A DNA stretch of 63,111 nt, filler included, from 4 parts of 4 records of this genome joined end to end with filler, not necessarily neighbours in it; one strand, 5' to 3'. Shown: positions 34,205-53,043, numbered from the whole stretch's first letter. A program made the numbers and translations. Notes: generated from the letters alone by a model not told the origin.

Positions 34205-34315
34205 AAGAACTGGGGGACAGTTCTCAAACAAAAAGTAAACAATACACCAAGGGGGAATTGATGCGCTTATTGTCTTTCGATGAATTCTCCTGTAGTGGGG
34301 GTGGAGAATTACATC
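34205..34315 (-). ncRNA. Candidate structured leader: three consecutive stem-loops with CCCC(C) loops
   Basis: Minus-strand hairpins AATTCTCC-ACCCCCACTACA-GGAGAATT, GCATCAA-TTCCCCC-TTGGTGT (extendable by ACAATA/TATTGT) and GAGAACTG-TCCCC-CAGTTCTT. The imperfect pairs are G-U only on the minus strand. Confidence 0.45.
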
Positions 34316-34358
34316 AATACTACAGTCAGTGACCTTCGACTATAATGTAGACCTATGC

Positions 34359-34387
34359 AAAGTAATACTTAAATGTTAACTGAGCAA
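34359..34387 (-). promoter_or_regulatory. Candidate promoter for the FG-GAP/RHS operon
   Basis: Minus strand TTGCTC-N17-TACTTT(GCA), just upstream of the C-loop hairpins. Confidence 0.4.
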
Positions 34388-35183
34388 GGGAAATTTTAAT
34401 TGCCAGTATTACAAATGATCTTAGTGAACATTTAGTAGCAACTGGACGCTGATCTCCCAGTTCTGTTTAGCTGTGTAAACTGTGCGTGTGTTAACATTGT
34501 GTTTCGGCTGACGGCTCAGGCATGGGGGCGAAGAGAGGCCGTCGCGGCTTTTGCGACAATCACAACCCAATTGACATTGATGAGTACTAACTGTCGACTT
34601 CCTGCTTCTTTACATACCTGTCCTGTATTTTCGGAGAGCCGGCGGCGGCCAGAGACGTTCCCTGATCCATTTCCTGACTCATGAAATAAAATTGAATTGC
34701 GAACTTGACTGCCTCACCAGACCGTGCTCCGGATCTGCATTTCAGCTTTTAACTGGAGCACCGATGCCCTTTCCAATTGGACCGGCGCAACATTGAGACA
34801 CACCAAGCAATAATTGGTTAAAAAAACTTTGGACCGTTTGTCTTTTGACCTGGCTTTTGTAGCTCACTTTGAAGTGAAGTCATATGCCAGTTCTTCCTAC
34901 CGCTCAGGAAAACCAACGATCATATTTTTTTGGGGATCGTTGTTTGCGCAACACCCCAATTGTTTAGCCCCAATTAGAGCAAGCAAGTCAAGAATGCCAA
35001 ACCAATTAGTGTCAATTTTGAAGCGTGAAGTGAGAGGATTTACATTGGCCTACACGCGAAAAACGTCGAATTCATTGCAAAATCAGTGATTTGCGGAGTA
35101 ATGCAGCACATTAGAGTTTGAAACTGTTAACTTGAATTCTTTGGATTGGTAGTTGTCTGGATTTTGCGGAATAGGAGGCACAC

Positions 35184-36722
35184 ATGAGCTCAACGGAAGA
35201 ACTTTACCAACTCATTCAAACGATGTCCAGAGCCGAAATACGCAATTTTCGCCAGGTCGTAGGCAGTAACACCAAAGATGGTCAAAGTAATTACCTGAAA
35301 CTATTTGACCTTATCCGTCGCCACGGTGATCAGGGAGAAGAACTCATACGGAAAAAGCTGCGCAAAGAGAAATTTGTTGAGCACCTGGCTACCACACGCT
35401 ATCAACTGAGTAGTCTACTGTTGCAAAGTCTATGCCGCTATAATTCCGCTAAAGACCCACTATTTGAGCTGCAGGAAGGCATTCAAAGTGTACGTTTATT
35501 ATTCGACCGCGGGCTTTGGGAATTCGGCGGACGTTTACTGAAAAAGGTGCGCCGTAAAGCCGAGATGTATGACTATCACTATGAACAAATCGAAATATTC
35601 AGATTAGAACGATTGGAATTGATGCGTTTGCAAACTCAGGGAATGGAACAGACACTGACTGAACATCTTGATAAAGAAAAGGCCGTCGTCCAAAAGTTAA
35701 CATTGGAGAGGGCTTACGCCGATCTGAGTTATCGGATGAATATTCTGGTAGGCAAGCAGATGTCAAGCAAAGATGGGCATACCTTGGAAAAAGCCAGAAG
35801 TATCATGTCCAGTCCTCTATTACGGAATAAGGAACAAGCCCAGACTTTTTTATGCAAGATGGTGTTTCTTAACACGCACACACAGTATTCCATTTTTACC
35901 GGGGACAAAGACAATGCGTACGAGTATATGTTTCAGCTTAAGCGCCTATGGGAAACCGAACCCCATCGGATCACAGTAGCTCCGGGTAGATATAAAACCT
36001 GCCTCACCAATTTTATGAGCATGTGTGTGACGAGCAGGCGTTACACTGAAGTGATGCCGGCTGTTAACGCTCTCAAAGCTCTTCCATCATTGTCAGCTTC
36101 AGATGAGATTAAGACGTTTCTGCATGTATCCAGTATCGAATTGATCTACCGACTTAACACTTCGCACTTTAAAGGTGGCGTAAGCTTAATCGATGAGATA
36201 GAAGAGGGTCTTAAAAAATATTCGGGTAAAATGGATGATGGCAAGGTGATGGTTCTGCTCCACAACAGTACTGTCTTTTTGTTTCTGAAAGGTGACTTTG
36301 CGCGCACGGCGGTTTGGATCGAGAAAATATTATTAAGCAAAAAAACTGACATCTTTAAGGGGCCAATCGAGCTGGCGCGTTTGCTTTTGCCCATTGTACA
36401 ATTTGAACTGGAAAATGATAGTCTTGTTGAACCTCTGATTCGCTCCGTGCAACGCTATTTACAACGCCATGAGCTTCTTAGTGATTTTTACTCGGTTTTC
36501 CTGGCCGGCCTTAACAAACTCGCAGCCACTGTTCAATCAGAAAGGACCTCCGATCTTTACCGCAGCTTGGACAAACAATTGCGTGTGATCAATCAGGAGC
36601 AACCGCCGCCGCCGCTAGAGTTCCAAAGCAATATCCTGTTGTGGCTCAAAAGTAGAATTGAGCAAACGCCGATTAACGAACTGTACTTGCGCAAAATAAG
36701 CAATAGTGATTCGACCCTGTAA
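35184..36722 (+). CDS. Uncharacterised 512-aa all-helical (TPR-like) cytoplasmic protein of a Bacteroidota-type family
   Basis: AGGAGG RBS and no signal peptide. N-terminus LYQLIQTMSRAEIRNF...NYLKLFDLI, followed by amphipathic helical repeats. Confidence 0.8.
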   Translation: MSSTEELYQLIQTMSRAEIRNFRQVVGSNTKDGQSNYLKLFDLIRRHGDQGEELIRKKLRKEKFVEHLATTRYQLSSLLLQSLCRYNSAKDPLFELQEGIQSVRLLFDRGLWEFGGRLLKKVRRKAEMYDYHYEQIEIFRLERLELMRLQTQGMEQTLTEHLDKEKAVVQKLTLERAYADLSYRMNILVGKQMSSKDGHTLEKARSIMSSPLLRNKEQAQTFLCKMVFLNTHTQYSIFTGDKDNAYEYMFQLKRLWETEPHRITVAPGRYKTCLTNFMSMCVTSRRYTEVMPAVNALKALPSLSASDEIKTFLHVSSIELIYRLNTSHFKGGVSLIDEIEEGLKKYSGKMDDGKVMVLLHNSTVFLFLKGDFARTAVWIEKILLSKKTDIFKGPIELARLLLPIVQFELENDSLVEPLIRSVQRYLQRHELLSDFYSVFLAGLNKLAATVQSERTSDLYRSLDKQLRVINQEQPPPPLEFQSNILLWLKSRIEQTPINELYLRKISNSDSTL

Positions 36723-37049
36723 GTAGTTTAACTGCTGGCGACGGGCAGTTGTCTCATGGCAAGATTGCGGTGTTTTGAATCAATCTGAGCAAAAAAATAG
36801 TGCTCAATATTAGCGCAAATTAGAATTGGCATGTAGGTTCTGCTAATTTTTCCATCCGTTCAAGCGGCAATACGGTACGTTCACCCATGGAATGCGGGCC
36901 ATTCGATTTTTCGCGTATTAATAATTGCCGGGCTTGAGTTAGACTTGTAGTTGACGGCGTGCAGCATGCAGTGCGCCGCTCCTCGATGGCCTTTCACTCA
37001 CAAAAAAAATCTGCATTACGCAGGGTGGGTGGAATGCGTCTGGACGTGG

Positions 37050-37149
37050 NNNNNNNNNNNNNNNNNNNNNNNNNNNNNNNNNNNNNNNNNNNNTTAATTA
37101 ATTAANNNNNNNNNNNNNNNNNNNNNNNNNNNNNNNNNNNNNNNNNNNN
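37050..37149. other. Artificial contig linker
   Basis: N44-TTAATTAATTAA-N44. Confidence 0.99.
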
Positions 37150-37195
37150 CCCCGGCGTGACAGGCCGGTACTCTAACCATCTGAGCTACAACCGC
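37150..37195 (-). tRNA. tRNA-Asp(GTC), 5' part only (truncated at contig end)
   Basis: Reverse complement GCGGTTGTAGCTCAGATGGTTAGAGTACCGGCCTGTCACGCCGGGG: acceptor 5' strand, D-arm, and anticodon stem CCGGC/GCCGG with loop CT-GTC-AC. Confidence 0.92.
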
Positions 37196-37234
37196 CCGCT
37201 GTTTCGTCCAGCGTGTCTTGCTGAACGTTGGGGT

Positions 37235-37263
37235 GTACTATTTCCACTCCGGCGCATCGTCAA
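37235..37263 (-). promoter_or_regulatory. Sigma70-like promoter of tRNA-Asp
   Basis: Minus strand TTGACG-N17-TAGTAC about 40 nt upstream of the tRNA. Confidence 0.6.
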
Positions 37264-37590
37264 GCGGCCTTTCGCACTTTTTTCCAAACAATCGCAAAAA
37301 CTTGTGGATAGCTTTTGCAAGCGACGAGGCCCCTCACCCCTTTGCGAACTTAAAATCGCCATAAAAACAAAGGGTTCCGCAACACCTGACCGCCATAAAC
37401 CCACCCAAATCACACGACCCACCTAATTTTACGGGCAAATCACATTTCCTGCTCTCCCCCGAGAATGGTACTTTCAGACCCTCAGCCACAGGCGCCCGCC
37501 GGGTCGCGCCAGATCATGAACACGCTCGGTTGCGGCGCACACGAGCAGATCCGTAAAACCGCGCCCGGCGTCTGGTGTCCCATCGACTCG

Positions 37591-37626
37591 AAAAGGGCGC
37601 GCAAGGTTCCCCTCGCGCGCCCTTTC
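37591..37626 (-). terminator. Intrinsic terminator after the exported hypothetical gene
   Basis: AAAAGGGCGCGC...GCGCGCCCTTT inverted repeat about 20 nt past the stop codon. Confidence 0.75.
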
Positions 37627-37647
37627 ATTCAAAACAGTCGGTGGTGG

Positions 37648-38181
37648 TTACTGTGACATCTGCTCAGCATTGCACGCCCGACCCATCTCCATCGCTTTGT
37701 ATGTCCCTGCCAGGTTCACGCTAAACGCGGCCTCGGTCTCAGGGAAAACGGTCATGGTGTATTTCTTGGCAAGATCATCGATAAAGTTCGCGTTATTGGC
37801 CAGAATATAACCGCCGGAATACCCTTCGGTGATATTGCCTTTCATGCCTGTCGCTTTCGAAGAATAGACATTGCCATCAATGCTGACGATAACTTCTTCC
37901 TTCTGGCCTTTTCTAATGCCAGCTTCGTTTTTGGAAAACACACCCAAGTATCCAACCGAATGATCTGCGGTCAAACCCATTTGGACAACGTTAGCTGCTG
38001 CATCCACGTTCTCAATCAAACAAGATTTACGTTCGATATCTACATAAACGTTCCAGCCTTCAACTTCACCGTATTTCGTAAACCCATCGCTTCCTGGGGC
38101 AATCACACCTTGTGCCATTGCACCCGTTGCCAATCCAACAGTAATCGCAGAAACAGACAGCGCAGTTTTAAATTTAATCAT
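37648..38181 (-). CDS. Exported hypothetical protein
   Basis: Signal peptide MIKFKTALSVSAITVGLATGAMA|Q, GGGAG RBS, two Cys and its own terminator. Confidence 0.8.
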   Translation of the reverse strand: MIKFKTALSVSAITVGLATGAMAQGVIAPGSDGFTKYGEVEGWNVYVDIERKSCLIENVDAAANVVQMGLTADHSVGYLGVFSKNEAGIRKGQKEEVIVSIDGNVYSSKATGMKGNITEGYSGGYILANNANFIDDLAKKYTMTVFPETEAAFSVNLAGTYKAMEMGRACNAEQMSQ

Positions 38182-38339
38182 CAGATAACTCCCTCTAAGT
38201 AGAACAAACAGTTCCACATTATTCTATTACTTGATTCCATGCGAGGTCGAGTTCGCACACATTTGAATATGTTTCCGTTTCTCTCGATTTCCGCCTAAAG
38301 TTATCGTCCGCACATAATTTGAGCAACAATCAGCCGATA

Positions 38340-39299
38340 TCATTCGTCAATTGCCTCAAAAATATGCACCGCCTCTTTCCCAGTTTGCCCCATTTGCCCC
38401 TCAATTTGCCCTAGCAAGGAAGACCGGACGTATTTAGCAATAGCAGCTGGCATGGATGCAAATTCCTGATCTCGCGCGACAACTGTTATCGTTCGTGACA
38501 TTGCCGCGCCCGGCAAGGGGCGCACATTCAGTGGCATTCGTTCCACCAAACCATCAATCAATAAGGTTGGCGTCAAAATGGTGAATCCCATTCCATCTGC
38601 GACGCACGCTGTCACCATACTACTTCGATCTGCCTGAATCACGCGAGGAGGCTGAACGCGCAGACGCCGCAAATGTTGGGAGATCCGACGCCCCACATCC
38701 GTTGTATCGCCAAACCGAACCAATGGCAGTTGTTTAACCACCTCTTCCAGACTGCGAACCGACCCTTGAAACCCAGCAGGCAACACCAATAGAAATGCCT
38801 CAGTAAACACCGGATGCCGCTCTAACCCGTCCAGGTCATAAAGCGGATTGCTGGTGACAACGATGTCCGCCTGTTTGGTCCGAATAAGCGCCTCGTGATC
38901 CCCACTTTGCCCTGCATGCAAGATCATATCCTGCACACCAAAATCATCCTTCGCCAATCGCACCAAACCCGGCGAAACCGTGGTCGCAATGGATGCCTGC
39001 AGGCCAAGACGTAACCGCGTGATTGGGTGCGGCCCTTGGTGGCGCATATCACTGCTCAGCGTCCCCACAGCTGTCAGGATTTGGGTCGCATGACGGTGCA
39101 TCAACACCCCCGCCTGTGTCGGGCGCACAGGACGCACCCCCCGATCCAGCAGCTTCACATCATAGGTCTTTTCCAGCCCCGCGATATGCTGCGATGCAGC
39201 AGATTGCGTCATACCAACCAGCCGTGCAGCGGCCGTCACCTGACCGGTTTCTACAACAGCAACAAAGACTTCCATCGCCTTTATCAAGTTCGAACTCAT
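38340..39299 (-). CDS. LysR-family transcriptional regulator
   Basis: HTH FVAVVETGQVTAAARLVGMTQSAASQHIAGLE...LLDR. Start 39299 (alternative 39320). Confidence 0.93.
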   Translation of the reverse strand: MSSNLIKAMEVFVAVVETGQVTAAARLVGMTQSAASQHIAGLEKTYDVKLLDRGVRPVRPTQAGVLMHRHATQILTAVGTLSSDMRHQGPHPITRLRLGLQASIATTVSPGLVRLAKDDFGVQDMILHAGQSGDHEALIRTKQADIVVTSNPLYDLDGLERHPVFTEAFLLVLPAGFQGSVRSLEEVVKQLPLVRFGDTTDVGRRISQHLRRLRVQPPRVIQADRSSMVTACVADGMGFTILTPTLLIDGLVERMPLNVRPLPGAAMSRTITVVARDQEFASMPAAIAKYVRSSLLGQIEGQMGQTGKEAVHIFEAIDE

Positions 39300-39333
39300 C
39301 GCGCCGCGCTGTTCCATCATCACCCCATCAGAT

Positions 39334-39364
39334 TTGCCAGTATTAGAAATCCTAATACTGGCAA
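39334..39364. promoter_or_regulatory. LysR recognition site (perfect 13-bp inverted repeat containing T-N11-A)
   Basis: TTGCCAGTATTAG-aaatc-CTAATACTGGCAA between divergent lysR and the MttB-family gene. Confidence 0.75.
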
Positions 39365-39425
39365 CTGTCAATTGATCGATCTGCCGTCCCTCTGCACATT
39401 GCAGGCCACCACAAGGAGGCTGGTC

Positions 39426-40970
39426 ATGACCGAACCCCAACCCAAACGACGGCGCAAGAAATCAGGCGGACGCGGTGCCCCCCGTCCCGGCGCCGATCAG
39501 CCTCGCGCCCCTTTCATCCTGCGCAAACTGGGCACCTTCAATATTCTGGGCGAAGAGGGCCTAAGCCTGATCGAAGAAAACGCCGATAAGATCCTTGCCG
39601 AAACAGGCATGGATTTCGTCGATGACCCCGAGATACTAGAGATCTTTGCCAACGCAGGCTGCGATGTTCAGGGCAGCCGCGTGCGCTTTGCCCCCGGGTT
39701 CTGCCGCAAGACCATTCAGGCCACAGCCCCCAAGCAGTTCACGCAACACGCCCGCAACCCGGCCAATTCGGTGCAACTGGGCGGTGATGCGACCGTGCTC
39801 TGCCCATCCTGGGGCCCGCCTTTTGTGCATGATTTGGATCGCGGCCGCCGCTATGCCACCTTTGAGGACTTTGAAACACTGGTGAAACTGCACCACACAA
39901 TCCCCTGGCTGCACCATTCGGGCGGCGTGGTGTGCGAACCCGTGGACCTGCCAGCAAACAAGCGCCATCTGGATATGCTGTACACCCACATCCGATACTC
40001 AGACCGCCCCTTTATGGGTGCCTTTATCGGAGCGGAGCGCGCTGGACATGCGCTGGACATGGCCCGGATCGTCTTTGGGGCCGAGTATGTCGCCGAAAAC
40101 CCCGTGCTCTATTGCGTGTCAAACACCAATGCGCCGTTGGTGATGGATTCGCATATGTCTGGCGCGCTGAAAACCTACGCCCGCGCAGGACAGCCGGTGG
40201 CCACCGCCCCTTGGGTGCTGGCCGGAGCCATGAGCCCCTGCACGGTTGCGGGCACCATGGCACAGGTATTGGCTGAGGCTTTGGCCTGCTTGACACTCGC
40301 ACAACTGGTCAAACCCGGCGCACCGGTGCTGATGGGCAGCTTTGCCTCAACCATGTCGATGCAATCGGGCGCGCCAACCTTTGGAACGCCCGAAGCCGGA
40401 CAAATGGTATTGGCGGCTGGTCAGTTGGCGCGACGGTTGGGCGTGCCGCTGCACACCGTCGGCACCCTTAGTGCGTCGAAAATCCCCGATGCCCAAAGCC
40501 AGCAAGAGGCCACATGGGGCCTGATGATGTCGATGTTTGCCGGGGCCAACCTGATCAACCACGCCACGGGCTGGTTAGAAGGGGGGCTGGTGACCAGTTA
40601 TGAGAAGACCATGATCGATGCAGATTTATGCGGAAAGATGGCGCGGTTCTTTGACGGCATTGATCTGAGCGAAAATGCACAAGCCATGTCCGCCATTGCC
40701 GCCACCGGACCGGGCGCACATTTCTTAGGGTCCGAGCACACCCAAGCCAACTTTATGACCGCCCTGTTCCGCCCAGAAACGCCAGACAACAACGCCTATG
40801 AGCATTGGGAGGCGGCGGGATCGCTGGATACAGCCCAACGCGCCAATGCGCTGTGGAAATCCCATCTGGACGCCTACGAAGACCCTGGTCTGGATCCGGC
40901 AATCGATGAAGAGCTTCAAGCCTATATCGCCAAACGCAAAGCGGAAACGCCAGATATGGATTATTTCTGA
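39426..40970 (+). CDS. Trimethylamine methyltransferase (MttB/MtgB) family protein, non-pyrrolysine
   Basis: ARNP...GG, CEPVDLP...RHLD, GAMSP.TVAG, SGAPTFGTPE, SKIPDAQ and GWLEGGL motifs. No in-frame amber codon. ATG 39426 behind AGGAGG. Confidence 0.92.
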   Translation: MTEPQPKRRRKKSGGRGAPRPGADQPRAPFILRKLGTFNILGEEGLSLIEENADKILAETGMDFVDDPEILEIFANAGCDVQGSRVRFAPGFCRKTIQATAPKQFTQHARNPANSVQLGGDATVLCPSWGPPFVHDLDRGRRYATFEDFETLVKLHHTIPWLHHSGGVVCEPVDLPANKRHLDMLYTHIRYSDRPFMGAFIGAERAGHALDMARIVFGAEYVAENPVLYCVSNTNAPLVMDSHMSGALKTYARAGQPVATAPWVLAGAMSPCTVAGTMAQVLAEALACLTLAQLVKPGAPVLMGSFASTMSMQSGAPTFGTPEAGQMVLAAGQLARRLGVPLHTVGTLSASKIPDAQSQQEATWGLMMSMFAGANLINHATGWLEGGLVTSYEKTMIDADLCGKMARFFDGIDLSENAQAMSAIAATGPGAHFLGSEHTQANFMTALFRPETPDNNAYEHWEAAGSLDTAQRANALWKSHLDAYEDPGLDPAIDEELQAYIAKRKAETPDMDYF

Positions 40971-43363
40971 TGGGGCGGACAATTATCATTGGTGGTGGCG
41001 CGATTGGTCTGTCTCTGGCCTATCACCTGGCCCATCGCGGGGCCGAGGATGTGGTGGTGTTGGAGCGAAACCAGCTGACATCCGGCACATCTTGGCACGC
41101 GGCGGGTATTGTTGGCCCCCTGCGCGCAACGCCTAATATGACTAAACTCGCCAGTTATGCGCTTGAGCTGTTTCCGCGACTTGAGGCAGAGACCAGCATG
41201 GCCACCGGCTATCGCCAGACCGGGGGCTATTGGCTGGCCCGACGCCCCGAGCGTCTGGACGAATTGCATCGGATTTCCACACTTGGGCGGCATTTCGGGC
41301 TCGATGCGCAGGTGATCGGCACAGACGATGTGAACGTGCCGGGGTTGGATGTTTCCAATCACGCCGGGGCCATGTGGGTCGCCCAAGACGCCAACGTAAA
41401 CCCGGTTGACCTGTGCATGGCCTATGCCCGCGCGGCCCGTTCCAAAGGCGTGGACATCCGCGAGAATGTTCAAGTGGAGCGCATTGTAACCCAAGACGGG
41501 GCCGCGCGGGGCGTCGCGCTGGCCGATGGGACAATCCTTGAAGCCGAGAGCGTCGCACTCTGCGCCGGAGCGTGGTCAAAACCCTTGGCTGAGGCGGCTG
41601 GGTTAGATCTGCCGCTACAGGCTGTAGAACACATGTATGTGGTGACAGAGCCGATGCCGGGGCTGCCGGATCCCTTTCCGGTGATCCGCGATATGGACAC
41701 TGGCATTTACATCAAAGGAGATGCTGGAAAACTGGTGATCGGCGGCTTTGAGCCGGACGCCAAGATCTGGGACGCATTTGGCCCTGAGGGGGATCGCCCG
41801 TTTTTGGAAATGCCCGAAGATTGGGATCAGTTCATGCCCTTCATGGAAGCGGCGCTAGAGCTGATCCCCGCGTTGGCGGAAACGGGCATTCAACATTTCA
41901 TGAACGGACCAGAGAGTTTCACCAACGATACCCGCCCCTTGGTCGGAGCCGCCCCGTTTGTGAATGGGCTATACGTGGCGGCAGGTATGAATTCAGTCGG
42001 CATTATGTCATCTGCAGGCATTGGGCGCGTGTTGGCCGACTGGATGGTCGACGGCGAAGCGCCCATGGATCTGTGGGAAGTGGATGTCGCCCGCGCCGAC
42101 CCTCGCGCCGCGACGCAGGCCCATATGGCAGATCGCATGCAAGAGAGCGTTGCTGATCTAATGGCGATGCATTGGCCCTTTAAGCAACCCAAAGCAGGCC
42201 GTGATATCAGGTATTCCGCCCTGCACAGCGCTTGGGCAACCGAAGGCGCGGTTTTTGGCCTGACCGCTGGGTGGGAACGCGCGCTGTGGTATGCACAATC
42301 CGACGCGGAGCGTGATCTGCCCTATTCGGTTGGGGCGCAAAGCTGGTTCCCCCTTGCCCAGCGCGAAGCTGCGCAAATGATAGAGGGGGCGGTTTTGCTG
42401 GATCTTTCCCCTTTTGGAAAGTTCGATGTTACGGGTCCGGATGCCTTGCGCGCCATGAACGCTTTGGTTTGTGCGCAGATGGACGTCCCAGTTGGGCGCG
42501 CAGTCTATACCCCGATGTTGAATGAAAAGGGCGGGATCGAAGGCGACCTGACTGTGACCCGATTGGGGAGCCAGCATTTTCGCATCACCTCTGGTGCCGC
42601 GACGCGCTGGCGGGATCTGGCGCTGCTGCGCCGCCGCTTCGCGGTCTGGTCTGTCGACTTGCGAGATGTCACCGAAACCGAGTGCGTTATTGGCGTTATG
42701 GGTGCAGCCGCACGGGATATCCTGACCAAGACCAGTGACGCCGACTGGATCGACTTCCCGTTCTCAACCGCGTGCCATGTGAGGATCGCCAGTGTTCCCT
42801 GCCGCGCCACGCGGATGAGTTTTGTTGGTGAACTTGGGTGGGAATTGAACATACCAGTCGATCAGGCCGATGTAGTCTTTGATGCCTTGATCCAGCTGGG
42901 TGCAAACCCCATGGGCATGTATGCACTAGAGGCGTGCCGGATCGAAAAGGCGTTTCGCCATTGGGGGCATGATCTGGGGCCGGAAATCACCCCCTTGGAA
43001 GCGGGCCTTGGATTCACGATTGACTGGAGTAAGGAATTTGTTGGCAAATTCGCACTAGAGGCCCAGCGCATCGCAGGGTTGTCTCGGCGACTATGCCTAT
43101 TCCAAGTGGAGGGCGATCCGCTCATCTTGCATGACGAACCCATTCTTGAGAACGGAACTGTCGTTGGCCTAACGACATCAGGTGCCAAGGGCGCGCGCAC
43201 AGGGCTGACGCTTGCGCTTGGAATGATCAGCATCTCTCCCGGTGAAAAGCTCTCACAGACCTGCGACAGAACCTTTGAGGTGGATATCGCAGGACAAACT
43301 TATCCAGCACGGGTTTTACCCTGTCCCCCCTATGACCCCAAAGGCGAAAGGATGCGCGGATGA
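40970..43363 (+). CDS. GcvT-family FAD/folate-dependent N-demethylase (sarcosine/dimethylglycine dehydrogenase-like) 1
   Basis: IIGGGAIG, GTSWHAAG (covalent-FAD His), NGPESFT, SFVGELGWE and RIEK motifs. TGATG overlap with the upstream gene. Confidence 0.92.
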   Translation: MGRTIIIGGGAIGLSLAYHLAHRGAEDVVVLERNQLTSGTSWHAAGIVGPLRATPNMTKLASYALELFPRLEAETSMATGYRQTGGYWLARRPERLDELHRISTLGRHFGLDAQVIGTDDVNVPGLDVSNHAGAMWVAQDANVNPVDLCMAYARAARSKGVDIRENVQVERIVTQDGAARGVALADGTILEAESVALCAGAWSKPLAEAAGLDLPLQAVEHMYVVTEPMPGLPDPFPVIRDMDTGIYIKGDAGKLVIGGFEPDAKIWDAFGPEGDRPFLEMPEDWDQFMPFMEAALELIPALAETGIQHFMNGPESFTNDTRPLVGAAPFVNGLYVAAGMNSVGIMSSAGIGRVLADWMVDGEAPMDLWEVDVARADPRAATQAHMADRMQESVADLMAMHWPFKQPKAGRDIRYSALHSAWATEGAVFGLTAGWERALWYAQSDAERDLPYSVGAQSWFPLAQREAAQMIEGAVLLDLSPFGKFDVTGPDALRAMNALVCAQMDVPVGRAVYTPMLNEKGGIEGDLTVTRLGSQHFRITSGAATRWRDLALLRRRFAVWSVDLRDVTETECVIGVMGAAARDILTKTSDADWIDFPFSTACHVRIASVPCRATRMSFVGELGWELNIPVDQADVVFDALIQLGANPMGMYALEACRIEKAFRHWGHDLGPEITPLEAGLGFTIDWSKEFVGKFALEAQRIAGLSRRLCLFQVEGDPLILHDEPILENGTVVGLTTSGAKGARTGLTLALGMISISPGEKLSQTCDRTFEVDIAGQTYPARVLPCPPYDPKGERMRG

Positions 43364-45771
43364 CCGACGCTCAGGTTTTAATCATTGGTGGCGGTGCTAT
43401 GGGCGTGTCGCTCATGTATCATCTGACCAAAGCCGGATGGCGTGACGTCGTGTTGGTCGAAAAGAACGATCTCACTCATGGGTCCACCTGGCACGCTGCC
43501 GGACTTTGTACACATTTCGCCCATAATCCTACAATTCAGGAACTGCGCGCTCGGTCTGTTCGTTTGTACCGGGATATCCTGCCAGAGGAGACCGGACAGA
43601 GTTGTGGCTTTCATTCCTCGGGCGCAATGCGTGTGACATCCAACCCGGATCGCATGGATGAGTTTCGCCATGTTGCCGGGTTATCAGACTTTACCGGTTA
43701 CCCGTTAGAGGTGCTGACCCCCGAACGTATCGCCGAGCTGCACCCCCTTACTGAATTGGATGGGTTGATCGGCGGGATCTATGAACCCGATGACGGCCAT
43801 GTGGACCCAACGCTTGCGACCAATGCGATGGCACAGGTGGCGACGCGCAATGGGGCAAAGATCAGTCGCTATAACCCTGTCCGTTCCATCCACCGCGAAG
43901 ATGGCAAATGGATAGTGGAGACGGACAAGGACACCTTTCGGGCCACTCACATTGTCAACGCCGCGGGTACATGGGGTTGGGAAATTGGGCATATGATGGG
44001 ATTGAATATCCCCTCTGTCCCCGTGCTGCACCAGTATCTGGTGACCGACACCATCCCCGAGGTTAATGATCGTATCAATGCGGGCCAGCCCGAACTGCCC
44101 ATGATCCGCGACCCCGAAGAAAGCTGGTACGTGCGCCAAGAGCGGGACGGGTTGATCCTAGGCCCATACGAGAAAGACGCACAGGTCTGGTCGATAGATG
44201 GGGTTCCCCCAGAGTTCGGGGCCGATCTGATGCCGCCGGATCTGGATCGGGTTGAACATATTATCGAAGCCGCAATGAACCGGGTGCCTGCCCTGATGAA
44301 TGGCGGCGTTAAAACCGTGGTCAACGGACCGATCACCTTTACCCCTGATGCAAACCCCCTGATTGGCCCGGCGCATGGCTTGGACAACGCATGGCTTATC
44401 ACGGGGTCCTCTATGGGTGTGATGGAGGGCGGTGGTTCTGGCTGGTTCTTGGCCCATTGGATGACACATGGTGCCCCCCCTATGGATGCCCTTGCCGTTG
44501 ATAGCCGACGTTTTGGCACATGGGCGGACCGGGATTATCGCGTAGACAAGGCGATTGAATGCTTTGGCCTACAGTTCGGTGTGCATTACCCCGGCGAAGA
44601 GCGCCCCGCAGGACGTAACAAGCGCCTGTCCCCCCTACACCAACTGATGCTGGATCGCGGGGCCGTCATGGGGGCTGCCTATGGGTGGGAACGTCCCAAT
44701 TGGTTCTCAGACACCCCCGGTGATATCGCCCACGAAAGCTTTCGCCGCCCGAACTGGTTCCCCCATGTCGCGCATGAAGTCGAGACGGTCACAACCAAGG
44801 CCGCGATTGCGGATCTTTCGGTATTCTCAAAGTTTGACGTGATTGGCCCGGACGCCCGGCGCTTTGTCGATACACTTGGGGCCAATCGCGCCCCTGCAAA
44901 TGGGCGTATCGGGCTGACCCATGTTTTGACCCCAGCCGGGGGTGTTCTGTCTGAGTTCACTGTCACCATGCTGGGCGATACACACGCTTACCTGACATCC
45001 GCAGCCGCAGCAGAGCAGATCGATCTGGATCAATTGCTGGCCCATGCGGACGGTTTGGATGTTTCCGTCATCAACCGATGCGAAGAGATGGCGGTCATTG
45101 GCCTGATGGGTCCCTTGTCCCGAGACATACTGCGTCCCCACACAGATGCGGATCTGGACAGCAGGTTTCCTTGGCTCACCGCGCAAACATTGGACGTTGC
45201 AGGCCACCCCGTCCGGGCGCTGCGCGTTTCGTATCTGGGTGAATTGGGGTGGGAACTGCATATGGATCGCGCCTGTGCGGAAAATGTGTTCCTTACCCTA
45301 GAGGCCACAGGCAAGCCGTTGGGCATGGGGTACTACGGGTCCTACGCCGCCAACGCGATGCGATTGGAAAAAGGGTATCGCGGTTGGGGCAGTGATCTGA
45401 CCACCGAACGTAGCCTGCACGAAGCCGGGTTGGGGCTGTTTGCCCGCGCTAAGGACCGTAGCTTTGTGGGCCGTGACGCCATGCTGGAACGCAAAGACAG
45501 TGAGGAGCGGTGGGACATGGTTCTGCTGGAAATCCACGACAGCGAGTTTGACCCATTCTATGCCCACTCTGTTCTGCAGGGGGACCAAGTCGTCGGGATT
45601 GTGACATCTGGCGCCTATGGCCATCGCACCGACAAAACACTGGCGCTCGCCTACTTACGCGACCGCCACGCCACCGAGGGGCTGACTGTTTCTATATTGG
45701 GGCGCAAATGCCCCGCTACGATTCTGACCAATGCCCCATTTGATCCCGACAACACGCGCCTGAAATCCTAA
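43360..45771 (+). CDS. GcvT-family FAD/folate-dependent N-demethylase (dimethylglycine dehydrogenase-like) 2
   Basis: IIGGGAMG, GSTWHAAG, VNGPITFTPD, SYLGELGWE and MRLEKGYR motifs. ATGA overlap. Confidence 0.92.
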   Translation: MTDAQVLIIGGGAMGVSLMYHLTKAGWRDVVLVEKNDLTHGSTWHAAGLCTHFAHNPTIQELRARSVRLYRDILPEETGQSCGFHSSGAMRVTSNPDRMDEFRHVAGLSDFTGYPLEVLTPERIAELHPLTELDGLIGGIYEPDDGHVDPTLATNAMAQVATRNGAKISRYNPVRSIHREDGKWIVETDKDTFRATHIVNAAGTWGWEIGHMMGLNIPSVPVLHQYLVTDTIPEVNDRINAGQPELPMIRDPEESWYVRQERDGLILGPYEKDAQVWSIDGVPPEFGADLMPPDLDRVEHIIEAAMNRVPALMNGGVKTVVNGPITFTPDANPLIGPAHGLDNAWLITGSSMGVMEGGGSGWFLAHWMTHGAPPMDALAVDSRRFGTWADRDYRVDKAIECFGLQFGVHYPGEERPAGRNKRLSPLHQLMLDRGAVMGAAYGWERPNWFSDTPGDIAHESFRRPNWFPHVAHEVETVTTKAAIADLSVFSKFDVIGPDARRFVDTLGANRAPANGRIGLTHVLTPAGGVLSEFTVTMLGDTHAYLTSAAAAEQIDLDQLLAHADGLDVSVINRCEEMAVIGLMGPLSRDILRPHTDADLDSRFPWLTAQTLDVAGHPVRALRVSYLGELGWELHMDRACAENVFLTLEATGKPLGMGYYGSYAANAMRLEKGYRGWGSDLTTERSLHEAGLGLFARAKDRSFVGRDAMLERKDSEERWDMVLLEIHDSEFDPFYAHSVLQGDQVVGIVTSGAYGHRTDKTLALAYLRDRHATEGLTVSILGRKCPATILTNAPFDPDNTRLKS

Positions 45772-45784
45772 AGAGGAGGCTTTT

Positions 45785-47098
45785 ATGACCCACGCACCAC
45801 TCCACACCGATTGGTCCACCGAGGCCACAGCCGCCCGGCGCGACAATTTCTATGCCGCCAGCCAGCGCAAGTTTGTACCTTTCAAAGATCCTTTGGTGTT
45901 TCAAAAGGGATCGATGCAATACCTCTGGGACGCAGAAGGTAACAAATACACCGACCTGTTGGGAATGAACGTCTGCATCTCTGTCGGTCATTCCCACCCA
46001 ACTGTAGTTGCCGCAGCCATGGCACAGGCCCAAGAGCTGACCCATTGCACCACCATGTTCTACCACCCTACCCCCGCGCATCTTGCCGAGGATCTGGCGG
46101 CCACTATGCCCAAAGGCCATGAATGGGTTGTGCATTTCACCAACTCAGGGTCCGAGGCCGTTGATCTGGCGATGACAATGGCCCGGACCTATACCGGCAA
46201 CCTTGATCTGTTAGCCTTGCGCACCGCCTATCATGGACCAACGGCAGCGGCGCAATCGATCACCGGTATTTCCGGGTGGCGCCATCCGGGTATGCCGGGC
46301 AACGTCGCCTTTGTCGCCGAGCCCAACCAATATCGCGGTATCTTTGGGGAAAACGCCGGGGCCGCGCCCTATCTGGATGAGATCGAACGCACCATTGCAA
46401 CAGCAACCAACGGACAATTGGCCGGGATGTTTGTGGAAAGTGTCCAAGGCTATGGCGGGATCATCGAAATGCCTGCTGGCTACATGTCAGGCGCGGCTGA
46501 ACGGGTGCGCGCAGCAGGTGGGTTGTATATCGCGGACGAGGTGCAATCCGGCTTTGGCCGCACCGGTGATCACATGTGGGGGTTTGAAGCCGATGGCGTG
46601 GTGCCCGACATCATCGTCATGGCCAAGGGTTTGGGCAACGGGTTTCCCATCGGTGCTGTGGTCGCAAAGAAAGAAATCGCCGCCCCCATGGCCGAAAAGT
46701 TCATGTTCCACACCTATGGGGCCAATCCGACCTCTTGCGCGGCGGGACGTGCGGTGTTGCAGGTCATCCGCGAGGATAACGTACAAAACAACGCCAAAGT
46801 TGTCGGGGCCGCCCTGCTGGAGCGGCTCAAAGACCTGCAATCACGCCATGCCGCCATCGGGGATGTGCGCGGGCGCGGTCTGATGCTAGCGATTGAGATG
46901 GTCAAGGATCGCAAAACCAAAGAGCCGGACCGGGAGACGACATCCGCCGTGTTTGAGCATTGCCGTGCCCAGCGGTTGATCCTGTCAAAATCCGGCCCTT
47001 TCCAAAGCTCGCTGCGGATGGTGCCCCCTATGTGCCTGACACTGGAAGATGTCGACCGGGTTGCCGAGGGTTTGGATCAGGCGTTCTCTTCGCTTTGA
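45785..47098 (+). CDS. Class-III PLP aminotransferase (AGXT2/beta-alanine aminotransferase-like)
   Basis: SVGHSHP, FTNSGSEA, IADEVQSGFGRTG and MAKGLGNGFPIGA motifs. Confidence 0.9.
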   Translation: MTHAPLHTDWSTEATAARRDNFYAASQRKFVPFKDPLVFQKGSMQYLWDAEGNKYTDLLGMNVCISVGHSHPTVVAAAMAQAQELTHCTTMFYHPTPAHLAEDLAATMPKGHEWVVHFTNSGSEAVDLAMTMARTYTGNLDLLALRTAYHGPTAAAQSITGISGWRHPGMPGNVAFVAEPNQYRGIFGENAGAAPYLDEIERTIATATNGQLAGMFVESVQGYGGIIEMPAGYMSGAAERVRAAGGLYIADEVQSGFGRTGDHMWGFEADGVVPDIIVMAKGLGNGFPIGAVVAKKEIAAPMAEKFMFHTYGANPTSCAAGRAVLQVIREDNVQNNAKVVGAALLERLKDLQSRHAAIGDVRGRGLMLAIEMVKDRKTKEPDRETTSAVFEHCRAQRLILSKSGPFQSSLRMVPPMCLTLEDVDRVAEGLDQAFSSL

Positions 47099-47122
47099 TT
47101 TACTGAGGCCCTAATAACCCCC

Positions 47123-47151
47123 GCGCTCACCTAGAATTGGGTGGGCGCTTT
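47123..47151 (+). terminator. Probable terminator closing the demethylase operon
   Basis: GCGCTCACCTA-gaat-TGGGTGGGCGC (with G-U pairs) followed by TTT. Confidence 0.55.
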
Positions 47152-47345
47152 GGCAAACTCACTCGGGCGGTACGAAAGTACGAATAACCACGCCCCCTCT
47201 GTAGATTTATGTGATCCGCCAAGTGGGCCAAGTGAGATTGCGCTAAAGCCGAATGGAACAGGTGAAACCATTTGCGCTCCTAAGCAAGACACGTCTGGAT
47301 TGAAAAAAGGTGTGACAGGCGCAAAAAGACCTGTAGACATATATT

Positions 47346-47984
47346 ATGAATTTGGTTGAAAACTTCGTCACGCTTTGGGTTGTCATCGACCCGATTGGTA
47401 CAATTCCCGTTTTCATAGCGGTCACTGCGGGCATGACGGCGAGTGCCAGACGGTCTGCCGCACTTATGGCAACGCTCGTCAGTATGAGCGTTCTGCTATT
47501 CTTTCTTGTGCTTGGGCAACTGCTTATTGATGCATTGGGCATCAGCCTGCTTTCGTTTCAAGTCGCCGGCGGGATCATTCTATTTCTATTCGCTCTGACT
47601 ATGATCTTTGGCGAACCGAAACAGGAAACAGACAAAAAAATGCTGGATGAGGATGAGAGCAGTCCTGCTCCGGAAAAGCCGTCACCAGCTATTTTTCCTT
47701 TGGCGGTTCCGTCTCTTGCCTCTCCGGGTGCCATGCTGGCCATTGTGCTTTTGACGGACAACAATCGCTTTTCAATCGCTGATCAGGCGGTTACGGCCGC
47801 TGTTATGTTCAGCGTTTTAGCCGTTGCTTATGTGTTCATGTTACTTGCCGATCCGATCATCCGGATCATTGGCGATTCAGGGGCCGCAATTGTCAGCCGA
47901 GTGATGGGGATGATACTTGCCTCGGTGGCGGCCGATGCGGTCCTGTCTTCGCTCGTCGAAATACTAAACACTGGAACCTTATAG
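47346..47984 (+). CDS. MarC family membrane protein
   Basis: IDPIGTIPVF, FQVAGGIILF, FPLAVPSLASPG and SRVMGMILA motifs. Confidence 0.92.
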   Translation: MNLVENFVTLWVVIDPIGTIPVFIAVTAGMTASARRSAALMATLVSMSVLLFFLVLGQLLIDALGISLLSFQVAGGIILFLFALTMIFGEPKQETDKKMLDEDESSPAPEKPSPAIFPLAVPSLASPGAMLAIVLLTDNNRFSIADQAVTAAVMFSVLAVAYVFMLLADPIIRIIGDSGAAIVSRVMGMILASVAADAVLSSLVEILNTGTL

Positions 47985-48028
47985 CGCCAAGTTTAGGTGT
48001 GGGGCGGAACAAGACTATGCCCCTTGCC

Positions 48029-48901
48029 CTAGCTCTGATTGCGGAACAATCGTGTAGAGGAGAACATCGCCTCCAACTCCTCGATCCGTTCTTTGCTTTC
48101 TTCCCAACGCGCGCCTTGTACTTCGGCGATCAGGGCTTCGATGATCAACTGCAAAGCCATTGTGCTGTCCCATGAGGACGGGGCCTCGACCAACCCGTTA
48201 AAGGTATAATCCGCACACCGCGCAATCGGCGATCCCCATTGATCCGTAAGCAAGACCACCGTCACCCCACGCTCGCTGGCGATCTGGGCCAGTTTTTCCA
48301 GATGTGCCTCGTATCGGCGGATGTCGAATATCACCAGAACCGAGGATTCATCCATATCCAGCAAATATTGCGGCCAGACGTTTGCGGAATTGCCCAGCAT
48401 TGTCACGTTGGGCCGAATGATCTGCATATGATTGAACAGGTAATCCGCGTTTGACCGGGTAATCCGCCCCCCGACCACGTACAAAGGCCGTGCCTTATCG
48501 GCCAACAACTGTGCCACGGCATCAAACATCCCGGTATCAACGCGTTCCAGCGTGTGCCGCATGTTTGTCCACACCACTTGCGCAAATCGCATCAATGGGT
48601 GTTCAGCGCTATCATCAACCATCCATGCATCGCGTTTCGAGATCGGCTTTTTGATTTGCGCTGCCACCTCTTCGCGCAGGGCGTCCTGTAGATCCGGAAA
48701 TCCGTCAAATCCGAGCTTACGCGCCATTCGGATGACCGTGGGGGTTGAGACCGTCGCAGCCGCAGCCAGCTTGGTGATGGATTGCAAACCGCCCATTGGG
48801 TAGTCCTGCAACAAAACCGAGGCCAGCTGACGCTCTGACGGGGTCAGGCCCTCGGTGTTGTCTTGTATCAATTGCTTCACGAGCTTGGTTGTCGGGGTCA
48901 C
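48029..48901 (-). CDS. MurR/RpiR-family transcriptional regulator
   Basis: LTPSERQLA...SITKLA...VSTPTVIRMARKLGFDGFPDLQ HTH, followed by a SIS domain. Confidence 0.92.
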   Translation of the reverse strand: MTPTTKLVKQLIQDNTEGLTPSERQLASVLLQDYPMGGLQSITKLAAAATVSTPTVIRMARKLGFDGFPDLQDALREEVAAQIKKPISKRDAWMVDDSAEHPLMRFAQVVWTNMRHTLERVDTGMFDAVAQLLADKARPLYVVGGRITRSNADYLFNHMQIIRPNVTMLGNSANVWPQYLLDMDESSVLVIFDIRRYEAHLEKLAQIASERGVTVVLLTDQWGSPIARCADYTFNGLVEAPSSWDSTMALQLIIEALIAEVQGARWEESKERIEELEAMFSSTRLFRNQS

Positions 48902-48915
48902 GGCACGCCCTTTTC

Positions 48916-49004
48916 TTTAGCATTTGTTACAGCGTAGTCAGGTTTGTAGCTATGTCTACAGAAATTTTCTTGACAGCGCCGTGCATTCTGTAACCAATGC
49001 TACA
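48916..49004. promoter_or_regulatory. Three TGTA-N8-TACA boxes plus a TTGACA -35 (candidate RpiR operators)
   Basis: TTTAGCATTTGTTACA (48916-31), TGTAGCTATGTCTACA (48945-60), TGTAACCAATGCTACA (48989-49004). TTGACA at 48970-75. Confidence 0.65.
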
Positions 49005-49005
49005 C

Positions 49006-49791
49006 ATGTCTGCTACTACCGAGTCACCATTGCTACATTCTTTAGAACTGCCCGCAGCGCGTGCATTGAACACCCGTGGCCAAGCGCCCGCCCTTTTGGT
49101 CTGTGAACATGCCAGCCGGTTTATTCCTGCTGCGTTGAACGGGCTTGGTCTGACGGCCGAGGCAGCCAACTCGCACGCCGCGTGGGATATTGGGGCGTTG
49201 GATCTGTCGGTTGAGCTGATGGGCGCGCTGGATGCACCTTTGGTTCAATCCCGCGTCAGCCGACTGGTCTATGACTGCAATCGCCCGCCAGAAGCCCCTG
49301 ATGCAATCCCATCGCAAAGCGAACGCTTTGTCATACCGGGAAACGCCAACCTGTCTGCCGATCAGCGCGCCGCACGGGTGAGCGATGTATATTTTCCGTT
49401 CCACGACATGCTCAAACAGACGCTAGATGCCCTTCCAGTGCCCCCGGTATTGATCACGATGCACAGCTTTACCCCGGTTTACAAAGGTCAAACCCGTGCG
49501 GTTGAGCTGGGGATTCTGCACGACAGCGATGACCGCGCCGCGCAGGCCCTGTTGGCCGCCGCGCAGGGCAGCGGGCTCAACACCGCGCTAAACGAACCAT
49601 ATTCTGTCACCGACGGTGTCACACATACGTTACGTGAACATGGTCTCAATCGGGGATTGCCGAACGTCATGATCGAGGTCCGCAATGATCTGATCGACAC
49701 GCCCACCGGTGTAAACCGCATGGCGGGGCTTTTGGCCCCAATGTTGGCACAGGTAATTGAACAGCTGGCCCCAAGAGAGGCACATCCATGA
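49006..49791 (+). CDS. N-formylglutamate amidohydrolase family protein
   Basis: CEHAS, HAAWDIGA, SRLVYDCNR, HSFTP, NEPY and IEVRNDLI motifs. Alternative start at 48997. Confidence 0.9.
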   Translation: MSATTESPLLHSLELPAARALNTRGQAPALLVCEHASRFIPAALNGLGLTAEAANSHAAWDIGALDLSVELMGALDAPLVQSRVSRLVYDCNRPPEAPDAIPSQSERFVIPGNANLSADQRAARVSDVYFPFHDMLKQTLDALPVPPVLITMHSFTPVYKGQTRAVELGILHDSDDRAAQALLAAAQGSGLNTALNEPYSVTDGVTHTLREHGLNRGLPNVMIEVRNDLIDTPTGVNRMAGLLAPMLAQVIEQLAPREAHP

Positions 49792-50306
49792 TATTTGCGC
49801 GTAAATACATCATCTTCATCGATGGGATGAACCGCGTGATCGGGCGCACTGTCATGTACGGCATCTTTGTGATGATGGGCATTCTGCTGTGGTCGTCGAT
49901 CTCAAAAACCTTTTTCTTGCCGTCGCTCTGGACGTTGGAAATGGCGCAGTTCGCCATGGTCGCTTATTACATCCTTGGCGGACCTTACTCGATCCAAATG
50001 GGATCAAATGTCCGTATGGACCTGCTGTATGGCGAATGGTCGCTGAAACGGCAGGCCTGGACTGACGCGATCACCGTGTTTTTCCTGATCACCTATCTGT
50101 GTGTGCTGCTTTATGGTGGCTACGACAGTCTTAGCTATTCGCTGCAATATGGTGAGCGCAGCCCGACCGCTTGGCGTCCCTACTTATGGCCAATCAAATC
50201 TATCATGTGTCTGGGCATCTTTCTGATGCTGCTTCAGGCGATATCCGAATTTCTCAAAGACATCCTGCGACTACGCGGTGAAGACATCGCGAAGGAGACC
50301 ATCTGA
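49788..50306 (+). CDS. TRAP transporter small permease (DctQ)
   Basis: Four TM helices, W.LEMAQF and VRMDLLY motifs. Followed by the large permease. Confidence 0.9.
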   Translation: MIFARKYIIFIDGMNRVIGRTVMYGIFVMMGILLWSSISKTFFLPSLWTLEMAQFAMVAYYILGGPYSIQMGSNVRMDLLYGEWSLKRQAWTDAITVFFLITYLCVLLYGGYDSLSYSLQYGERSPTAWRPYLWPIKSIMCLGIFLMLLQAISEFLKDILRLRGEDIAKETI

Positions 50307-50488
50307 TGTCCTACGAATTGATCGCCATCCTCATGTTTTCAACCATGATGCTGATGCTGTTGACCGGTCAGCGTGTGTTCGGCGCGATTGGCTTTGTCGC
50401 CGTCATGGCATCGCTGCTGTTGTGGGGCGACCGGGGCGGCTATGACCTTGGGTTCTCTGCCGCGATGAAGCTGATGAAGTGGTATCCG
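50306..50488 (+). CDS. TRAP transporter large permease (DctM), 5' fragment
   Basis: MSYELIAILMF...LLTGQRVFGAIG. Truncated by the contig end. Confidence 0.8.
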
Positions 50489-50588
50489 NNNNNNNNNNNN
50501 NNNNNNNNNNNNNNNNNNNNNNNNNNNNNNNNTTAATTAATTAANNNNNNNNNNNNNNNNNNNNNNNNNNNNNNNNNNNNNNNNNNNN
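50489..50588. other. Artificial contig linker
   Basis: N44-TTAATTAATTAA-N44. Confidence 0.99.
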
Positions 50589-50590
50589 CT

Positions 50591-53030: not shown

Positions 53031-53043
53031 AAATTGGGCAGAT

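Follow-up and report, generated by a model that had tools for sequence, protein, structure and literature searches.

In aerobic roseobacters, the methyltransferase MtgB demethylates glycine betaine together with MtgC, a corrinoid protein in shared use, and with the pterin methyltransferase MtgD, and the demethylation of dimethylglycine (DMG) and sarcosine follows this MtgBCD step (PMC12478193, 2025). The MtgBCD(E) system of Ruegeria pomeroyi and Phaeobacter inhibens uses a non-pyrrolysine enzyme of the MttB superfamily (pfam06253), has its MtgC and MtgD encoded elsewhere and shared, and removes the later methyl groups via DAO-GcvT dehydrogenases; up to seven uncharacterised pfam06253 paralogues may act on other methylated compounds (PMC12478193). 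Here, we analysed an operon of four genes with a divergent LysR-type regulator gene, located at 38340–47151 in a stretch of DNA of 63,111 nucleotides (filler included; hereafter the window), that likewise encodes a non-pyrrolysine MttB enzyme. This MttB is another paralogue than MtgB, reading W-H-H-W-G instead of Y-R-H-W-G at the columns of the MtgB substrate site, and, unlike MtgB, it shares one operon with two dedicated dehydrogenases (DH1 and DH2) and a class-III aminotransferase. With a probability of roughly 0.6, we read this operon as a LysR-controlled route along which a trimethylammonium compound other than glycine betaine would be demethylated to a primary amine and then deaminated, each catalytic step being predicted from the family or architecture of the enzyme concerned.

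The MtgB, MtpB, MtcB, MtyB and MthB enzymes of anaerobes belong to the same family and are presumed to transfer a methyl group from a quaternary amine to Co(I), with one paralogue per substrate. They are reported to keep the arginine at position 312, and they remove only one methyl group, which feeds acetogenesis or methanogenesis (PMC13080624, PMC12155760). Unlike the MttB of the window, these enzymes are not coupled to flavoprotein demethylases or to a transaminase. The initial annotation of the window held that no aerobic route with this gene set had been described, which is only partly right because MtgBCD, together with DMG and sarcosine demethylation, has been in print since 2025 (PMC12478193). 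The set with the aminotransferase, the MttB lineages with an arginine-to-histidine change detailed below and a catabolic route for beta-alanine betaine were not found described in the literature, although the figures or supplementary information of PMC12478193 may show related neighbourhoods. Taken singly, the reactions of all steps are of known kinds.

Organisation of the operon

The window consists of four contigs joined by linkers of the form N44-TTAATTAATTAA-N44 at 23616–23715, 37050–37149 and 50489–50588, so that the context of the operon is limited to 37150–50488 as the sole physically linked DNA. On this roseobacter-like contig of 13.3 kb, the regulator gene (38340–39299, minus strand, 319 aa) matches the Pfam families HTH_1 (2.1e-19) and LysR_substrate (6.9e-22), the ATG at 39299 having been chosen as its start over a longer open reading frame with a TTG start. 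All NCBIfam equivalog models scored below their cut-offs for this protein. The MttB gene (39426–40970, plus strand, 514 aa) is divergent from it across 126 bp and is followed on the plus strand by the genes for DH1 (40970–43363, 797 aa) and DH2 (43360–45771, 803 aa), both flavoproteins with DAO, FAO_M, GCV_T and GCV_T_C domains, and for a class-III pyridoxal phosphate (PLP) enzyme of the AGXT2/ETNPPL branch (45785–47098, plus strand, 437 aa; Aminotran_3, PF00202, 5.3e-84).

The MttB gene is preceded by an AAGGAGG ribosome-binding site, MttB and DH1 overlap by 1 nt (TGATG), DH1 and DH2 overlap by 4 nt (ATGA), and the 13-nt gap between DH2 and the aminotransferase gene contains AGAGGAGG, a strong ribosome-binding site. 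The four plus-strand genes are translationally coupled. Domains and junctions thus bear out the gene identities, the layout for LysR control and the tight coupling that had been claimed for this operon.

Within the intergenic region between the regulator and MttB genes, a perfect palindrome (ATTAG-N5-CTAAT, 39342–39356) forms a candidate LysR box; it is the single match in the window, and none of 100 shuffles yielded any. Among 74 related loci, 15 carried the looser form TTAG-N5-CTAA just upstream of MttB, within the 420 bp that surround the start of this gene, against a total of 21 matches across all 1.37 Mb of the same loci. Judging by its HTH_1 and LysR_substrate domains, the divergent operon and this palindromic candidate box, the regulator fits the LysR type.

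At the other end, a hairpin at 47123–47148 (plus strand) with an 11-bp GC-rich stem lies 25 nt past the aminotransferase stop codon. Its predicted stability is -20.8 kcal/mol (z -1.9; 9 of 200 shuffles fold equally well), the T tail that follows is TTT only, and a consensus terminator scan of the window did not list it. Of the terminator proposed to close the operon, the stable hairpin is therefore present, but with its weak T tail and the silent scan it is a possible terminator.

Conservation of the gene set

Related loci were collected by scans over one genome per species, anchored on either the aminotransferase or the MttB enzyme. The aminotransferase anchor returned 502 related stretches, the best 80 of which were taken, 69 with enough upstream DNA to judge; the MttB anchor returned 267 relatives, with 69 of the best 80 being evaluable. 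MttB, DH1 and DH2 were all present in 64/69 of the aminotransferase-anchored loci, and the aminotransferase gene directly followed DH2 in 67/69 of the MttB-anchored loci. The four catabolic genes are therefore conserved together, and the lack of such conservation, named beforehand as a finding that would speak against a joint pathway, was not observed.

Two gene orders occurred among the 64 loci, namely that of the window (type A, 41 loci) and one in which DH2–DH1 is divergent from LysR–MttB–aminotransferase (type B, 23 loci), with an MttB that is 51–55% identical to that of the window. Most of the 80 aminotransferase-anchored loci have a LysR homologue (39–97% identity) next to the cluster. 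The PLP enzyme is the most conserved member, at 79–99% identity across taxonomic orders and present in all of the best 80 loci.

Of the five misses with the aminotransferase anchor, L015 has an IS21 insertion in DH2, L039 has a disrupted DH2, and L016, L061 and L080 hold only the aminotransferase of the set; the two misses with the MttB anchor (L271 and L279) carry MttB–DH1–DH2 without the aminotransferase. In L015, from a metagenome-assembled genome (MAG) of the Rhizobiaceae, an IS21-family transposase gene and IstB lie inside DH2 (7393–9503), with the GCV_T_C end standing alone before the aminotransferase gene.

The cluster had been suggested as one to look for in cultured roseobacters, and such carriers were found. 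Many cultured Rhodobacteraceae and Paracoccaceae are among the carriers, with members of Falsiruegeria, Tropicibacter, Roseovarius, Nioella, Ruegeria, Leisingera, Shimia, Aliisedimentitalea, Paracoccus and Tabrizicola, besides Aestuariivirga, and MAG carriers belong to the Rhizobiaceae, Geminicoccaceae, Puniceispirillales and the gammaproteobacterial Granulosicoccaceae. The cultured strains comprise Falsiruegeria mediterranea CECT 7615, Roseovarius albus CECT 7450, Nioella sediminis JS7-11, Aliisedimentitalea scapharcae KCTC 42119 and, with the type B order, Leisingera aquimarina DSM 24565.

Roseobacter genomes contain 9–21 MttB paralogues (genomes G002–G005, G002 being Rhodobacteraceae bacterium EL53) and 15–21 DAO-GcvT paralogues (G002 and G004). 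Many MttB and dehydrogenase pairs are adjacent in G002–G005 and have LysR, GntR, TetR or AraC regulators of their own. A second module, built from other paralogues, has a LysR gene beside MttB, a HemL-like class-III PLP enzyme and two dehydrogenases (L090:6032–16334 in G002; L050:11400–20064 in Ruegeria sp. Ofav3-42), which suggests a modular scheme with a family of operons that would first demethylate and then deaminate. In G002, this second module is followed by an Xsc-like thiamine pyrophosphate enzyme. A taurine-type reading of the module is uncertain, the Xsc score (389 bits) being below the cut-off (676) and the PLP enzyme being HemL-like.

The substrate pocket of the MttB enzyme

The MttB of the window covers positions 5–500 of the 500 in the PF06253 profile (1.4e-200), and its frame is open under translation table 11, without an in-frame stop or UAG codon. 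Against TIGR02369, the model of the pyrrolysine-type trimethylamine methyltransferase, it scored 265 bits at a cut-off of 525, and its matches in the PDB were 4yyc (8.4e-178) and MtgB (2qne/9yce, 3e-111). In the glycine betaine site of MtgB, Y97 and F356 are cation-pi partners and R312 and H348 are carboxylate ligands, with R312 being kept by every member with a known, acidic substrate (PMC13080624). Upon alignment to MtgB, the residues Y97, R312, H348 and F356 correspond to W129, H343, H379 and G387 in the window, so that only the histidine and an aromatic residue at position 97 of the MtgB signature are retained. This comparison uses an inferred offset of +2 between the chain index of 9yce and the numbering of the paper, which was accepted because all four residues then coincide.

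In a MAFFT alignment, all 42 type A enzymes read W-H-H-(W)-G and all 25 type B enzymes read F-H-H-(C)-L at the MtgB columns. The arginine-to-histidine change is thus common to both MttB lineages that are linked to this aminotransferase. The MttB paralogue of G002 that lies beside guaA reads Y-R-H-W-G at the same columns, and six other MttB paralogues of G002 retain the arginine (one has a lysine).

Because MtyB (gamma-butyrobetaine), MtcB (carnitine) and MthB (phosphocholine) all keep Arg312 as well (PMC13080624), the change argues against glycine betaine without favouring a longer carboxylate betaine. An omega-amino carboxylate betaine had been the substrate class proposed in the initial annotation, and the absence of an arginine that the characterised members with acidic substrates keep speaks against that class.

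The flavoproteins and the class-III enzyme

DH1 and DH2, which are 34% identical to each other, have the four-domain architecture of dimethylglycine dehydrogenase (DMGDH) and sarcosine dehydrogenase (SARDH) (4p9s, 4pab, 5l46; PMC5082570) and of the dimethylglycine oxidase of Arthrobacter (1pj5), and by this architecture both are predicted to be N-demethylating dehydrogenases of the tetrahydrofolate (THF)-linked type. DH1 matched human and rat DMGDH (4e-119, 402 bits), and DH2, the more DMGDH-like of the two, matched rat DMGDH at 2e-193. When five of the 15 dehydrogenase paralogues of G002 were scored against rat DMGDH, DH2 had the highest score (648 bits) and the others reached 604, 570, 532 and 402 bits. 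An SWHAAG motif is located where DMGDH bears its flavinylated histidine, and we take its histidine to be equivalent to His91 of DMGDH. In contrast to the characterised enzymes, DH1 and DH2 are two of 15–21 paralogues per genome, and their partner in the operon argues that they would act on N-methylated forms of some non-glycine amine. Within the DMGDH-like family, nicotine catabolism offers a precedent for a longer substrate in its 4-methylaminobutyrate oxidase.

AGXT2 (alanine-glyoxylate, beta-alanine-pyruvate and 3-aminoisobutyrate-pyruvate transaminase) and its lyase relatives ETNPPL and PHYKPL belong to the same class-III branch as the PLP enzyme of the window. Its best solved match was the human phosphoethanolamine phospho-lyase (ETNPPL) 6tor (3.8e-88, the next match being at 1.7e-68), and the best NCBIfam models were the C-terminal domains of the kinase-fused PRK06148 and PRK06149, far under their cut-offs. 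The region of the PLP lysine (VMAKGLGNG) aligns with TMGKPMGNG of 6tor, and the window has an arginine (SSLRMVPPM) where 6tor has a lysine (NVLKIKPP). In class-III transaminases, this arginine holds the keto or amino acid by its alpha-carboxylate. The lysine was also found in two fused kinase-type homologues of 1015 and 1032 aa and in the 444-aa L097 (G002 and G004), and the arginine in three ordinary class-III paralogues of the same genomes. From these four sequences, namely 6tor, the two fused homologues and L097, we infer that the lysine may be diagnostic of the lyase type.

Moreover, no kinase gene was among the Pfam matches on the operon contig, so that the window enzyme has neither the lysine for arginine nor the kinase partner or fusion of an ETNPPL-type enzyme. 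The phospho-lyase reading was accordingly downgraded, and because the arginine is kept where ETNPPL has a lysine, the PLP enzyme is read as a putative AGXT2-branch transaminase. In source labels and in the automatic naming of the Atlas it is called an alanine-glyoxylate/3-aminoisobutyrate transaminase, these being labels only.

Glycine betaine loci and partners in trans

The operon contig is colinear with a Paracoccaceae MAG (92.2% DNA identity across 13,354 bp) and with G002 (89% DNA identity), in which the operon proteins are 91–99% identical to those of the window. G002 could therefore be compared with R. pomeroyi, in which MtgB1 (SPO2108), next to the GMP synthase SPO2109, is induced on glycine betaine (PMC12478193, Dataset S1). 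The MttB paralogue beside guaA in G002 is syntenic with this MtgB1, and a second G002 paralogue adjoins an outer-membrane-protein gene, matching the context of MtgB2 (SPO2134).

No gene for a corrinoid protein or a methylcobalamin:THF methyltransferase was found on the operon contig. Unlinked to its operon, G002 encodes a stand-alone MtgC-like protein with B12-binding_2 and B12-binding domains, followed by a DUF1638 gene, and G002–G005 each have one such stand-alone corrinoid protein. A Pterin_bind gene of G002 (MtgD-like) adjoins another dehydrogenase paralogue, and a further locus runs dehydrogenase, alcohol dehydrogenase, homocysteine S-methyltransferase, AraC and dehydrogenase. Together with the precedent of MtgC and MtgD in R. 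pomeroyi (PMC12478193), these genes are consistent with the earlier view that the corrinoid protein would be supplied in trans. That glycine betaine is not the target had also been anticipated, and the MttB signature and the separate glycine betaine-linked loci of G002 both uphold this, making glycine betaine an unlikely substrate of the operon.

A sulfotransferase gene adjoining the cluster

A Sulfotransfer_5 gene (PF19798, 250–260 aa) adjoins the cluster in 38/80 of the aminotransferase-anchored loci (e.g. L007:4402–5184, minus strand, and L015:11322–12083, plus strand) and in 35/80 of the MttB-anchored loci. It lies directly after the aminotransferase gene, after DH2, or between MttB and DH1, and in L016 the arrangement consists only of a major facilitator superfamily (MFS) gene, the PLP enzyme and the sulfotransferase. 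The operon contig of the window has no sulfotransferase gene. A structural model of the protein (predicted local distance difference test, pLDDT, 91.3) has the fold of sulfotransferases that use 3′-phosphoadenosine-5′-phosphosulfate (PAPS), with the best TM-score (0.60) to 4gox, the activating sulfotransferase of an olefin synthase; by sequence, the PDB returned zero matches. In 5/5 genomes of carriers without an adjacent copy, a sulfotransferase homologue (49–56%) was encoded elsewhere, in uninformative contexts. In Nioella, a supposed 266-aa protein of unknown nature, placed between the MttB and DH1 genes, was rejected as an antisense artefact, the real gene being the sulfotransferase on the other strand.

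Proposed pathway and competing explanations

On the favoured reading of a demethylation and deamination route, the MttB enzyme would transfer the first methyl group onto the Co(I) form of an MtgC-type corrinoid protein that is encoded elsewhere, from which an MtgD-type enzyme would hand it to THF. The DMGDH/SARDH-like DH1 and DH2 would then take off the second and third by oxidation, in the form of methylene-THF. The primary amine thus obtained would be transaminated by the AGXT2-type enzyme, with pyruvate as the probable partner, and the aldehyde so formed would feed into central metabolism. The presence of OpuAC-type (betaine/choline) binding-protein genes beside the cluster in 7/80 loci and the modular recurrence of such operons count in favour of this reading.

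AGXT2-type enzymes classically accept beta-alanine and 3-aminoisobutyrate. Our first guess for the substrate, tentatively held and at well under even odds, is beta-alanine betaine, which is produced in marine communities (PMC9321204). The closeness of DH2 to DMGDH is a point in its favour, as is a short-chain dehydrogenase/reductase (SDR) gene that adjoins about 11/80 loci and might reduce malonate semialdehyde. Other omega-amino or hydroxylated betaines (gamma-butyrobetaine, carnitine, valerobetaine, betaine-lipid head groups) are rather improbable, and the same holds for choline or its O-esters; trimethyltaurine is very unlikely.

Several observations weigh against the proposed route or its preferred substrate. 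MtgC and MtgD of the window organism are predicted from relatives at 89–92% DNA identity, and the nearest solved relative of the PLP enzyme is a lyase and no transaminase. The top DMGDH score of DH2 would be as compatible with a substrate resembling glycine as with one resembling beta-alanine, the arginine-to-histidine change appears to be no pointer to a longer carboxylate betaine either, and the linkage to a sulfotransferase gene is not accounted for by any scheme with beta-alanine betaine.

The operon could also be a self-contained route for glycine betaine, in which MttB would yield DMG, DH2 would act as DMGDH and DH1 as SARDH, and the AGXT2-type enzyme would convert glycine and pyruvate to glyoxylate and alanine. 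These four activities are consecutive on the standard glycine/betaine map, DH2 has the top rat DMGDH score of the five paralogues compared, the source labels name an alanine-glyoxylate transaminase, and genes for the later demethylation steps are often situated near mtgBCD (PMC12478193). However, Arg312 and Phe356 are absent from all 42 type A and 25 type B enzymes, whereas the MtgB1-syntenic paralogue of G002 keeps Y-R-H, and G002 has its separate glycine betaine-linked loci. The equilibrium of alanine-glyoxylate transamination moreover lies far towards glycine, so that such a transamination would be a poor exit from glycine. Finally, the induced MtgB1 and MtgB2 of R. pomeroyi are orphans beside guaA and an outer-membrane-protein gene, respectively, with no such operon, and we regard a glycine betaine route as unlikely.

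Another candidate substrate is choline or an O-ester of it (choline-O-sulfate, phosphocholine), which three demethylations would turn into ethanolamine or a 2-aminoethyl ester, to be cleared by PLP-dependent elimination in the manner of ETNPPL or by transamination. The adjacent sulfotransferase, where present, would then supply or recycle the ester group, as the kinase MthK does for MthB in Eubacterium limosum. Such a route would suit an MttB without the carboxylate-binding arginine, a closest solved PLP homologue that is the phosphoethanolamine phospho-lyase, and a PAPS-sulfotransferase-fold gene that often directly follows the PLP gene and accompanies it in L016. OpuAC-type (betaine/choline) binding-protein genes adjoin the cluster in 7/80 loci, their products scoring weakly to choline-binding models, and phosphocholine is a proven substrate of the MttB family that needs prior activation of choline (PMC12155760).

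Yet the PLP enzyme keeps the arginine that is replaced by lysine in ETNPPL and the fused kinase-type homologues, MthB itself keeps Arg312 (PMC13080624), and the adjacent sulfotransferase is missing from the window operon and from about half of the loci, its unlinked homologues in the five tested genomes standing in uninformative contexts. Spending PAPS would also be costly in catabolism, and this choline-type route is unlikely. In its most specific form, the cluster with the sulfotransferase would aerobically demethylate a hydroxylated quaternary amine, for instance choline, while bypassing glycine betaine, the hydroxyl group being sulfated first, in parallel with the phosphorylation by MthK in E. 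limosum, the MttB with histidine for arginine acting on the ester and the PLP enzyme removing the 2-aminoethyl ester. This we consider quite doubtful; if true, 'activating' sulfation would for the first time be seen to serve catabolism, namely the breakdown of an amine. A description of a bacterial choline sulfotransferase was not found in the literature.

Lastly, the genes might be neighbours with separate roles, i.e. a general MttB of methylamine salvage, unrelated dehydrogenases and a housekeeping aminotransferase. With this many MttB and DAO-GcvT paralogues per genome, adjacency by chance is conceivable, and loci with the aminotransferase alone (L016, L061, L080) or lacking it (L271, L279) do occur. 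Against this, the four orthologues occur together in two gene orders across the Rhodobacterales, Hyphomicrobiales, Geminicoccaceae, Puniceispirillales and Granulosicoccaceae, their reading frames are translationally coupled, and two MttB lineages with 51–55% identity share the arginine-to-histidine change when linked to the aminotransferase, making separate roles highly improbable.

Among the 9–21 MttB and 15–21 DMGDH-like paralogues of roseobacters, only glycine betaine has an assigned system. With its compactness, its own regulator, a diagnostic change in the active site and cultured type strains, the present operon is the cleanest handle that we have seen on a second substrate, and its gene set is conserved in hundreds of species-level genomes. 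With its substrate identified, the operon would contribute one more route to the marine cycling of methylated nitrogen compounds and enlarge the demand known for vitamin B12; were that substrate beta-alanine betaine, the route would be a nitrogen counterpart of the demethylation of dimethylsulfoniopropionate (DMSP).

Neighbouring genes and make-up of the window

In the Leisingera loci L024, L026 and L035 (type B), a 699-aa flavoprotein with Oxidored_FMN and Pyr_redox_2 domains and a PotD-like ATP-binding cassette (ABC) transporter are encoded just 3′ of the aminotransferase gene. This domain architecture matches that of trimethylamine and histamine dehydrogenases and of DgcA.

The other contigs of the window differ in origin. 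The first (1–23615) is betaproteobacterial and Limnobacter-like, with a MutS that is 71% identical to that of a Limnobacter MAG and a 100% match to genome G001. The second (23716–37049) encodes a 2420-aa RHS-repeat protein and an FG-GAP protein, and the fourth (50589–63111) derives from an Emcibacter-like alphaproteobacterium (aconitase 93, 84 and 76% identical). The source assembly thus looks like a mixed bin with contigs of different taxa. A genomic island or inter-class transfer had been considered from the fact that G001 matches 12100–23615 at 100% and contains neither the MttB nor anything past 23.6 kb; this reading became void because the N linkers reveal four concatenated contigs.

At the start of the operon contig (37150–37200), the sequence by eye resembles a partial tRNA gene, truncated where the contig begins; in the whole window, ARAGORN called no tRNA genes. 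The 3′ side of the operon on the same contig carries MarC, a divergent RpiR regulator gene, an FGase-family gene and a truncated tripartite ATP-independent periplasmic (TRAP) transporter. Specifically, at 48029–50306 the RpiR gene is divergent from the FGase-family amidohydrolase gene, and the TRAP DctQ gene is cut at the contig end. RpiR, FGase and TRAP genes are also present 3′ of the cluster in a related MAG (L002).

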